From an uncultured Actinomycetota bacterium (GTDB lineage: Bacteria > Actinomycetota > Actinomycetes > Propionibacteriales > Nocardioidaceae), in contig CAWAZF010000003.1 of NCBI GenBank assembly GCA_963786595.1, forward strand, positions 351-64,350: DNA of 64,000 bases, read 5' to 3'. Shown here piece after piece: positions 11,632 to 12,843 of this stretch. A program made the translations under genes and the position numbers. The notes beneath the pieces were generated by a model. The model had not been told where the DNA came from and did no database searches. It worked only from the letters and a program-made list of their open reading frames with translations. Each line of letters opens with the position of its first letter. Within the stretch, counting starts at the first letter, position 1.

Positions 11632-12779
11632 GTCGAGTAGGCCGAGTTCTCGTGGACGTAGGCGTGGGTGAGGTCGTTGGTCCAGATCGAGGCGCGTGCG
11701 TCGCCGGCCTTGAGGTCGACCGTCACGCTGACGGCCCGCTCCTCGAGGCTGACGGCGGTGGGTGACTCCCCCGGGCCGCTGTTGCGGCACACCCAGACAT
11801 CGTTCAGGGCGACGTCGAGGTCCGCCGGGTCGAACGCCGCGTTTGTGGTGCCCACCGAGGCCAGCACGCGGCCCCAGTTCGGGTCCTTGCCGAAGATCGC
11901 GCACTTGAACAGGTTGCTGCGGGCGATGGAGCGTCCGACGTCGACGGCATCGTCCTCGGTGGCCGCGTTGAGGACGTCGATGGTGATCTCGTGGTCGGCG
12001 CCCTCGGCGTCGGCCAGCAGCTGCATCGCGAGGTCGTGGCACACCGCACGGAGCGCCTCGGCGAACTCGGCCGGGTCGGGGCTCTGGCCCGACGCGCCGC
12101 TCGCCATCAGCAGCACGGTGTCGTTGGTGGACTGGCAGCCGTCGGAGTCGAGCCGGTCGAACGTCGTGCGGGTGGCCGCGCGCAGGGCGGCTTCGGCCTG
12201 ACCGGGGTCGAGCACGGCGTCGGTGGTGACGACCACGAGCATCGTGGCGAGCGCCGGGGCGAGCATGCCGGCACCCTTGGCCATGCCGCCGACGGTGTAG
12301 CCGTCACGCGTCACCACGGACTGCTTCGGGACGGAGTCGGTGGTCATGATCGCCTCGGCCGCAGCCTGACCTCCGTCGGGCTGGAGCAGCTCGAGTGCGC
12401 CTCGGACGCCGGTGAGCAGGTGGTCACGATCGTTGAGCAGGCCGATGAGGCCGGTCGAGCACACCTGAACATCGACCGCGCCGATGCCGAGCCCCTCGGC
12501 TGCCGTCTCGGCGGTCGCGTGGGTGGTGGCGAAGCCCTCCGGGCCCGTGTAGCAGTTGGCGCCACCGGAGTTGATGACGACGGCCCGCGCCGATCCGCCC
12601 TTGATGGCCTCCTGGCTCCAGAGGACCGGGTTGGCCTTGCAGCGGTTGCCGGTGAAGACGGCGGCCGCCGTCGACGACGGTCCGTCGTTGACGACCACGG
12701 CGACGTCGGACGCGCCACTGGACTTGAGGCCCGCGGCGACGCCGGAGGCCCGGAACCCCTGGGCCGCGGTGACGCTCAC
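11628..12779 (-). CDS. argJ: Bifunctional ornithine acetyltransferase / N-acetylglutamate synthase
   Basis: [40 protein letters not shown]. Confidence 0.97.
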
Positions 12780-12843
12780 TGTGCTGCCCTCGTTTCGTTC
12801 GCTGCGCTCACTGTGCTGCCCTCGTTTCGTTCGCTGCGCTCAC
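12773..12843 (-). repeat. 2.2 tandem copies of a 32-bp unit; each full unit encodes the mini-[14 protein letters not shown] (12808-12843 and 12776-12811)
   Basis: Minus strand GTGAGCGCAGCGAACGAAACGAGGGCAGCACA x2 then GTGAGCG; each GTG overlaps the preceding TGA. Confidence 0.95.

Follow-up and report, generated by a model that had tools for sequence, protein, structure and literature searches.

The arginine biosynthesis genes argG, argC, argJ, argB and argD lie in this order, all on the minus strand, in a 64,000-nucleotide stretch of an uncultured Nocardioidaceae genome (contig CAWAZF010000003.1), the whole of which is called the window here; the subject of this report is a short tandem array between argC and argJ. 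Read on the minus strand, the junction is ...GTGGCCCC GTGA GCGCAGCGAACGAAACGAGGGCAGCACA GTGA GCGCAGCGAACGAAACGAGGGCAGCACA GTGA GCGTCACC...: the 64 bases between the two genes are two identical 32-nt units, oriented as the genes, and nothing else. The first-pass annotation of this DNA had described two exact 32-bp units, which was borne out by reading the sequence and by Tandem Repeats Finder (period 32, 2.2 copies, 100% matches, score 142, the top score in the window). With up to three mismatches allowed, the full unit was found in the window solely at its two positions in the array (Table 1), without a further copy, and 0 of 100 shuffles matched. The unit is composed of 11 A, 12 G, 8 C and a single T, in a window of 69% G+C.

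Each unit encodes an 11-codon mini open reading frame (mini-ORF) whose own TGA overlaps the next GTG. A GTGA overlap is present at all three joints, that is, at the end of argC, between the units and at the start of argJ, which is the chain of mini-ORFs that had been proposed. Since the unit length of 32 is of the form 3n+2, this chain survives any copy number, again as proposed. Every unit starts with a copy of the argC/argJ overlap, GTGAGCG, and this 7-bp microhomology, flanking every unit, is a substrate for slippage or deletion. The ends of both neighbouring genes are conserved: the argC C terminus, GVAP followed by TGA, is kept across 78 relatives, the NF003802 alignment of ArgJ begins at residue 2, and the N terminus MSVTAAQGF is kept in relatives.

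A Shine-Dalgarno-like GAGG had been placed about 8 nt before each GTG. This held for the second GTG and for the argJ GTG, which have GAGG(G) 7-8 nt ahead of them, and not for the first GTG, which is preceded instead by the G-rich end of argC, GTGGGGGTGG; the latter pairs with the anti-Shine-Dalgarno sequence at -13.2 kcal/mol. The corresponding duplex was -9.7 kcal/mol for the 32-nt unit, compared with -3.1 kcal/mol in a relative that has no unit (L002, see below). The predicted fold of the unit was worse than that of its shuffles (z = +1.9; an equal or better fold in 198 of 200 shuffles), an Rfam search returned zero matches at E values up to 1, and folding gave no stable inverted repeat or hairpin of the kind expected of REP or MITE-like elements. 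A structured RNA or a known RNA family was ruled out on the Rfam and folding results. An origin of the first unit as a duplicate of the junction flanks was likewise rejected: its 25 unique bases are unlike both the argC 3' end (P = 0.46) and the argJ 5' end (P = 0.99).

Table 1. Coordinates of the argC/argJ junction, and of a second bridging reading frame, in the window
Feature	Position	Strand	Remarks
argC (N-acetyl-gamma-glutamyl-phosphate reductase)	12840..13883	minus	NCBIfam TIGR01850, 351 bits
argC start and stop	probable ATG 13883-13881; TGA 12842-12840	minus	
Tandem Repeats Finder array	12773-12843		
Unit 1, GTGAGCGCAGCGAACGAAACGAGGGCAGCACA	12812..12843	minus	GTG 12843-12841 overlaps argC TGA
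Mini-ORF 1, 11 codons	12843-12808	minus	TGA 12810-12808 overlaps GTG 12811-12809
Shine-Dalgarno-like GAGGG of unit 1	12819..12823	minus	7 nt upstream of GTG 12811-12809
Unit 2, identical to unit 1	12780..12811	minus	
Mini-ORF 2	12811-12776	minus	TGA 12778-12776 overlaps argJ GTG 12779-12777
Shine-Dalgarno-like GAGGG of unit 2	12787..12791	minus	7 nt upstream of argJ GTG
Third, partial copy GTGAGCG	12773..12779	minus	at argJ start
argJ (bifunctional glutamate N-acetyltransferase / amino-acid acetyltransferase)	11628..12779	minus	NCBIfam NF003802, 439 bits; start GTG 12779-12777
fmt/rsmB bridging ORF, 9 codons (MTDFVRGLT, then stop)	33652-33681	minus	ATGA at both ends; Tandem Repeats Finder row 33647-33696

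Copy number and distribution of the 32-nt unit

The closest relatives of the ArgJ protein were found in metagenome-assembled genomes (MAGs) of uncultured soil Actinomycetota, in Aeromicrobium and in other Nocardioidaceae, in keeping with the non-mycobacterial lineage that the first-pass annotation had assumed. A JGI contig (L082) carries one unit that is identical to the window's at 32 of 32 positions, and a MAG (L003) carries one unit with four differences (28/32). The closest relative, L002 (88% ArgJ identity), has 0 units and an empty site, GCACC-GTGA-GTGTCACC, with a single GTGAGTG. Given that the flanking DNA of L082, L003 and L002 is only about 80-88% identical to the window, the three are different species, and a single unit therefore predates their split. 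The window and these three relatives are thus four roughly equidistant species with 2, 1, 1 and 0 units. The L082 unit is identical throughout while its flanking coding DNA is 80-86% identical (0.83^32 is about 0.003), and the unit length is fixed at 32 nt between species that are 15-20% diverged.

Logan contigs of three soil runs from two different studies (X1, X2 and X5) span the unit-unit joint; in run X4 a contig is shorter at the array by exactly 32 nt, and in run X3 one is shorter by exactly 64 nt. Because soil contigs carry the joint, the two-copy state is no assembly artefact, which answers the worry that the repeat was an assembly duplication. The two-copy array is real. Related natural populations (L002, L003, L082 and the contigs of X1-X5) carry alleles with 0, 1 and at least 2 units, which makes the array a variable-number tandem repeat (VNTR) as had been suspected. 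Like an ordinary slippage VNTR, it has exact head-to-tail copies, microhomology at its bounds and copy-number alleles (0, 1 and 2) among relatives; unlike one, its unit is older than a species split, is better conserved than the flanking coding DNA, and is constrained in phase and length. In the X1 and X2 contigs with the unit-unit joint, position 12812, the last base of unit 1, is changed from A to C, which turns the last mini-ORF codon from CAG to CCG and retains the TGA/GTG overlap.

Each of the four differences that set the L003 unit apart from that of the window is nonsynonymous in the mini-ORF, and GAACGAAACGAGG and AGCACAGTGAG are kept. The former, which lies around the Shine-Dalgarno site of unit 2, is common to the window, L082 and L003, and the same A-rich motif is found immediately upstream of the starts of unrelated genes in genomes of Bifidobacterium, Leifsonia and Leucobacter and in one Actinomycetes MAG. 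In three of the four indel-bearing unit variants of the soil contigs, the gaps sum to 3 nt. Since the unit is unstructured, its peptide changes, its Shine-Dalgarno site and spacer are kept and its core precedes unrelated starts, the conserved part looks like an open, A-rich Shine-Dalgarno leader, and neither like a structured RNA nor like a coding peptide. In contig L102 from a Leifsonia sp., the leader immediately ahead of a gene start contains, at about 3935-3990 (minus), a tandem repeat with a 17-nt unit, ACGAACGAAACGACAGC, in just over two copies, which has the ACGAACGAAACGA motif in common with the window's unit. This repeat suggests that A-rich leaders are prone to slippage.

The distribution of the unit was assessed by searching species genomes and metagenomes. 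Among 185,579 species genomes, its 22-mer core gave a single match, in a Thermoleophilia MAG (L001), where it is antisense to a coding region (MaoC-like by eye); this match was taken as chance. A 17-base core that the window and L003 have in common, GAACGAAACGAGGNNAGCA, gave 41 single matches in the same genomes, which is below our rough chance estimate of about 70; they are scattered over unrelated phyla, the only relative among them being the L003 junction, and the L003 genome holds no second match. A scan of JGI metagenomes returned one match, L082, again at argC/argJ. When four soil metagenomes were searched with the unit alone, 2-6 contigs were found per run, every informative flank was argJ, and there was no sign of another locus in these four metagenomes. 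The first-pass annotation had proposed a selfish or tuning element like the MIRUs (interspersed repetitive units of mycobacteria); every copy found sits at argC/argJ, and a selfish interspersed nature of the 32-nt unit is not shown.

Bridging reading frames at other junctions

To place the array among its counterparts, 78 actinobacterial argC/argJ junctions, retrieved with ArgJ, were surveyed. A direct 4-nt RTGA overlap (R, A or G) was present in 49 of the 78; this overlap is therefore the ancestral state, and the cassette is an insertion into it. The window's own argJ/argB, argB/argD and argD/argF junctions are all 4-nt ATGA overlaps. Of the 29 loci that lack the direct argC/argJ overlap, 26 retain a start codon overlapping the argC stop. 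Most small inserts that are out of frame with argJ contain a bridging ORF with a 4-nt overlap at both ends, and these occur in six lineages, namely the window's clade, L004, L005, L015, L016 and a Streptomyces group. In the last (L052, L062, L063, L073 and L080), the homologous inserts are 68, 92, 92, 116 and 122 nt long, all of the form 3n+2; they lie just upstream of position 3001 (2793 in L080) and hold open bridging ORFs ending in ...GAAGCGAAC(G/A)AGGAG..GCA-GTGA. The junction of L012 is nearly bridging, its stop overlapping the argJ ATG by 1 nt (TGATG), and the small inserts of L065 and L067 are not bridging. The bridging geometry at argC/argJ looks selected.

The remaining loci differ in kind. 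In L037, L050, L051, L056, L057 and L072, ArgJ is extended in frame at its N terminus and its start still lies on the argC stop, and a gene with an ACT_7 domain, its start overlapping the argC stop, lies between argC and argJ in L006, L008, L013, L018, L021, L023, L024 and L043. In these genomes, which are of the Nocardioides type, the product of this gene has about 140-190 aa and also an A9CJY8-like N-terminal domain, and in five of them its stop overlaps the argJ start. Aeromicrobium sp. MLTX1 (L005:2879-3004) has a different argC/argJ insert of 122 nt that includes a long imperfect palindrome and has GAGCGCAGCGAGAC on the other strand; its bridging ORF, 41 codons long and with an ATGA at each end, is open all the same.

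The window itself holds another such junction. The first 26 nt of rsmB are present once more, in diverged form, between the fmt TGA and the rsmB ATG; this copy, again of a 3n+2 length, is a second, independent case of the bridging geometry, here clearly made by a duplication anchored on the overlap. It shows one route to such units. The origin of the first argC/argJ unit is different, because that unit is unlike its own flanks.

Upstream of argC, argG (14006-15337, minus) is apparently frameshifted at about 14110-14140: the annotated frame ends at 14006, and the canonical C terminus, ...EFGTD followed by a stop, runs on in another frame to a TGA at 13905-13903. Either the assembly has an indel here or argG is a pseudogene.

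A family of longer junction elements, and the MIRUs

At the argC/argJ junction of Aeromicrobium sp. 50.2.37 (L004:2921-3004), an 80-nt insert was found with the mini-ORF MSERQRVNDQHLVPAISYRALPSGVAA (then stop). This insert is homologous to inserts at argD/argF in two other Aeromicrobium genomes (L005:6333-6416 and L007:6280-6366), and the reciprocal sites in L004, L005 and L007 are empty ATGA overlaps. Such filled and empty sites suggest mobility or precise loss. A scan with the 5' motif TGAGCGAGCGYCAGCGAG returned at least 120 loci, nearly all actinobacterial (L124-L243, e.g. L143:1568-1751, L207:6270-6488, L219, L162 and L194:2178-2261). The elements of this family start with RTGAGCGAGCGYCAGCGAG, encode a mini-ORF beginning MSERQR and occur in Aeromicrobium, Nocardioides, Micromonospora, Actinocatenispora, Nocardia and others. 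No description of the RTGAGCGAGCGYCAGCGAG family was found in Rfam, NCBIfam or the literature searched.

Among the matches listed, TGAGCGAGCGYCAGCGAG is preceded by A or G in 111 of 141, and 81 of 86 short ORFs end on a TGA that overlaps a start, compared with 30% at random RTGA sites; of these 81, 65 have a long ORF or another unit as upstream neighbour and 73 have one downstream. Unit lengths in the same matches are mostly 80 nt (36 cases), 83 nt (18) and 77 nt (5), and there are short, internally deleted derivatives of 26, 35, 41, 47 and 50 nt, in which the 5' motif, Shine-Dalgarno site and RTGA are preserved. Tandem loci number at least 12, with 2-4 units each, and in several genomes the family occupies three loci or more.

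In the Nocardioides/Aeromicrobium subtype, the Shine-Dalgarno site and the start codon make up the 3' arm of a hairpin. For the matches listed, 94% of cells are paired versus 81% in shuffles, double changes occur in 26 cells versus 4.4 in shuffles, and slid controls pair at no more than 51%; where the start is GTG, its partner shifts from CAT to CAC. Such a hairpin should tie initiation at the downstream gene to translation of the mini-ORF.

We examined whether the 32-nt unit belongs to the family. Similarity was measured against an empirical alignment null of 4000 28-mers that follow an RTGA. At the motif level, the window unit gave P = 0.0105 for its 5' part and P = 0.006 for its 3' part, and the L003 unit gave P = 0.059 and P = 0.024, respectively. 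The two kinds of element share GTGAGCG..CAGCGA(A/G)YGAA, a GAGG-spacer-RTGA end, a bridging ORF with NTGA at each end, tandem arrays, and the argC/argJ site itself (in Aeromicrobium sp. 50.2.37). They differ in that the family is multi-locus with a covariation-supported hairpin, whereas the window unit is single-locus, has no hairpin and lacks 5 nt of the 5' motif. A full family element was not found in the 64-kb window with the family profile hidden Markov model (HMM). A regular expression for a shared 3' module matched the window unit alone and missed the family; it was discarded as overfitted. The family includes short derivatives that lack the hairpin, and one of its full members occupies this junction in a related genus; that the cassette is itself a short, hairpin-less derivative of the 77-83-nt elements is plausible, and we put the odds at roughly even.

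Likeness to the MIRUs had been suggested on the basis of their mini-ORF architecture and a core motif. A review citing Supply 1997 describes an ORF inside the MIRU repeat, coupled at -4 spacing (PMC12548453), and we read the published MIRU292 of M. avium paratuberculosis as a 53-nt unit (3n+2) with an ATGA-to-ATGA ORF; the 11-mer GAGCGCAGCGA is indeed present in it (PMC7977185, Table 1). Both MIRUs and the window unit are intra-operon and gene-oriented, with a bridging ORF at -4 spacing, a 3n+2 length and tandem arrays that vary in copy number. MIRU292 and the window unit both have GAGCGCAGCGA followed by a GAGG-type Shine-Dalgarno site, and the frame and position of the motif relative to the NTGA differ. 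In comparison with MIRU292, the only published unit on which the sequence comparison rests, the window unit gave P values of about 0.003 (dimer null) and 0.025 (1.3-unit null), and the L003 unit gave 0.23. The likeness rests mainly on GAGCGCAGCGA, which the orthologous L003 unit does not have. MIRU292 compared with the family gave P = 0.04-0.10. MIRUs are mycobacterial and occupy tens of loci, and their units are about 46-101 nt long in general; the window unit is 32 nt long, single-locus and from Nocardioidaceae. On interspersion (within the 64-kb window and the genomes and metagenomes searched), on unit size and on host, the unit does not belong with the MIRUs, and a MIRU superfamily link is a lead, not a result.

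Interpretation of the cassette

We interpret the array as a two-copy, copy-variable 32-nt intercistronic cassette that was inserted into the ancestral GTGA overlap and probably relays ribosomes from argC to argJ, a reading to which we give a probability of about 0.55. On reaching the end of argC, ribosomes would start again at the GTG that overlaps its stop, as they would have started on argJ before the insertion, and termination-reinitiation would pass them through one or two mini-ORFs to argJ. The exposed Shine-Dalgarno site of each cassette would also let ribosomes load afresh, and the mini-ORF peptide itself would be irrelevant. Slippage or unequal exchange could take the array from one to two units via the 39-bp repeat and from one to zero via the 7-bp GTGAGCG. 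An extra unit would mean one more re-initiation step, so the amount of ArgJ relative to ArgC could shift, in either direction. Known arrangements close to this are translational coupling at 4-nt NTGA overlaps and the synthetic bicistronic design leaders (PMC12548453), in which a short ORF carries the Shine-Dalgarno site of the next gene, its stop overlaps the next start, and it delivers ribosomes and keeps the start region open, as is proposed for the window unit. Unlike bicistronic designs, the window unit is natural and tandem and would be fed by the terminating ribosomes of the upstream gene.

Several points weigh against the relay. Mini-ORF translation, the relay and any dosage effect are purely what we infer, and an exposed Shine-Dalgarno site could by itself account for argJ translation and for the conservation without any relay. 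The cassette is dispensable, as L002 has 0 units. For a single insert, the bridging geometry is not improbable by chance (length about 1 in 3, freedom from stops about 0.6 or more), and once one unit has it, every duplicate inherits it automatically. The Logan soil contigs were built with k = 31, at which two copies and more than two are not separable, so that they count as at least two units. The link to the family is weak, with a nonsignificant profile HMM score for the unit (nhmmer, E about 97) and motif-level tests alone reaching P of about 0.006-0.06.

The strongest competing explanation takes the array for an ordinary spacer that was duplicated once by slipped-strand mispairing, with argJ initiating afresh at its Shine-Dalgarno site, the mini-ORFs a by-product and copy number neutral. 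Exact copies imply a recent duplication, and GTGAGCG microhomology flanks them; the conserved core is a generic ribosome-binding motif that also precedes unrelated actinobacterial genes, the peptide is not conserved, the unit is unstructured with a good Shine-Dalgarno site, and the chance prior of the bridging geometry is about 1 in 4. Against a neutral spacer stands the preservation of reading frames: most small inserts out of frame with argJ keep both overlaps in six independent lineages, the Streptomyces length variants (68, 92, 116 and 122 nt) are all 3n+2, the gaps sum to 3 nt in three of the four indel-bearing soil variants, the 32-nt length is held over 15-20% divergence, and the overlap of a start with the argC stop is kept in 26 of 29 loci. 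The frame-preserving inserts and indels argue against an explanation by the Shine-Dalgarno site only, which we put at well under even odds. That the second copy is a spurious assembly duplication is hardly credible; the apparent indel-type frameshift in argG on the same contig would fit it, and against it stand X1, X2 and X5, independent short-read soil runs of two studies, each with contigs across the unit-unit joint.

Two further explanations were weighed. It might be a mobile, interspersed MIRU-type element present at many junctions of the source genome, as its MIRU-like architecture, the GAGCGCAGCGA shared with MIRU292, and a truly interspersed family of the same geometry in related genera, found at the same junction in Aeromicrobium sp. 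50.2.37, might lead one to expect, and the search of the source genome covered 64 kb. This is very improbable given the searches reported above: there is no second locus in the window, the 22-mer core has one antisense match in 185,579 genomes, the 17-base core gives 41 scattered matches where about 70 are expected, with no second one in the L003 genome, the JGI match is at argC/argJ, and the informative flanks in the soil metagenomes are all argJ. We are equally doubtful of an arginine-sensing leader, in which a rare AGG codon lies on the next Shine-Dalgarno site, pausing at low arginine modulates argJ, and extra units add sensitivity. The cassette does lie inside an arginine biosynthesis operon, and ACG AGG (Thr-Arg), whose AGG overlaps GAGG, is kept in the window, L082 and L003. 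Against such a leader, each unit has one Arg codon and no run of regulatory codons, the unstructured unit forms no terminator or antiterminator and has no Rfam match, the Shine-Dalgarno site accounts in full for the AGG, and junctions that have nothing to do with arginine (fmt/rsmB and the family loci) show this geometry too.

A bolder extension of the relay would make the cassette the minimal, hairpin-less end of a pan-actinobacterial superfamily of mobile junction elements that includes the MIRUs, settles in NTGA stop/start overlaps and is tolerated through its ribosome-relaying bridging ORFs, with copy number acting as a heritable rheostat of ArgJ:ArgC. We hold this to be unlikely.

MIRUs are used worldwide for tuberculosis strain typing, their spread and their effects on expression are poorly understood, and they are treated as a mycobacterial peculiarity. 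The argC/argJ locus has the MIRU design, in which an overlap is replaced by a chain of overlapping mini-ORFs, in a soil member of the Nocardioidaceae, and a family of the same geometry is found in culturable genera (Aeromicrobium, Nocardioides and Micromonospora), with filled and empty sites between congeners. The alleles with 0, 1 and 2 units and the forms with and without a hairpin are natural test beds for termination-reinitiation relays and for the tolerance of operons to insertions. The message of the window itself is modest, a real, conserved and copy-variable intercistronic cassette in an essential biosynthetic operon, and the family found along the way is a more interesting lead than the cassette.

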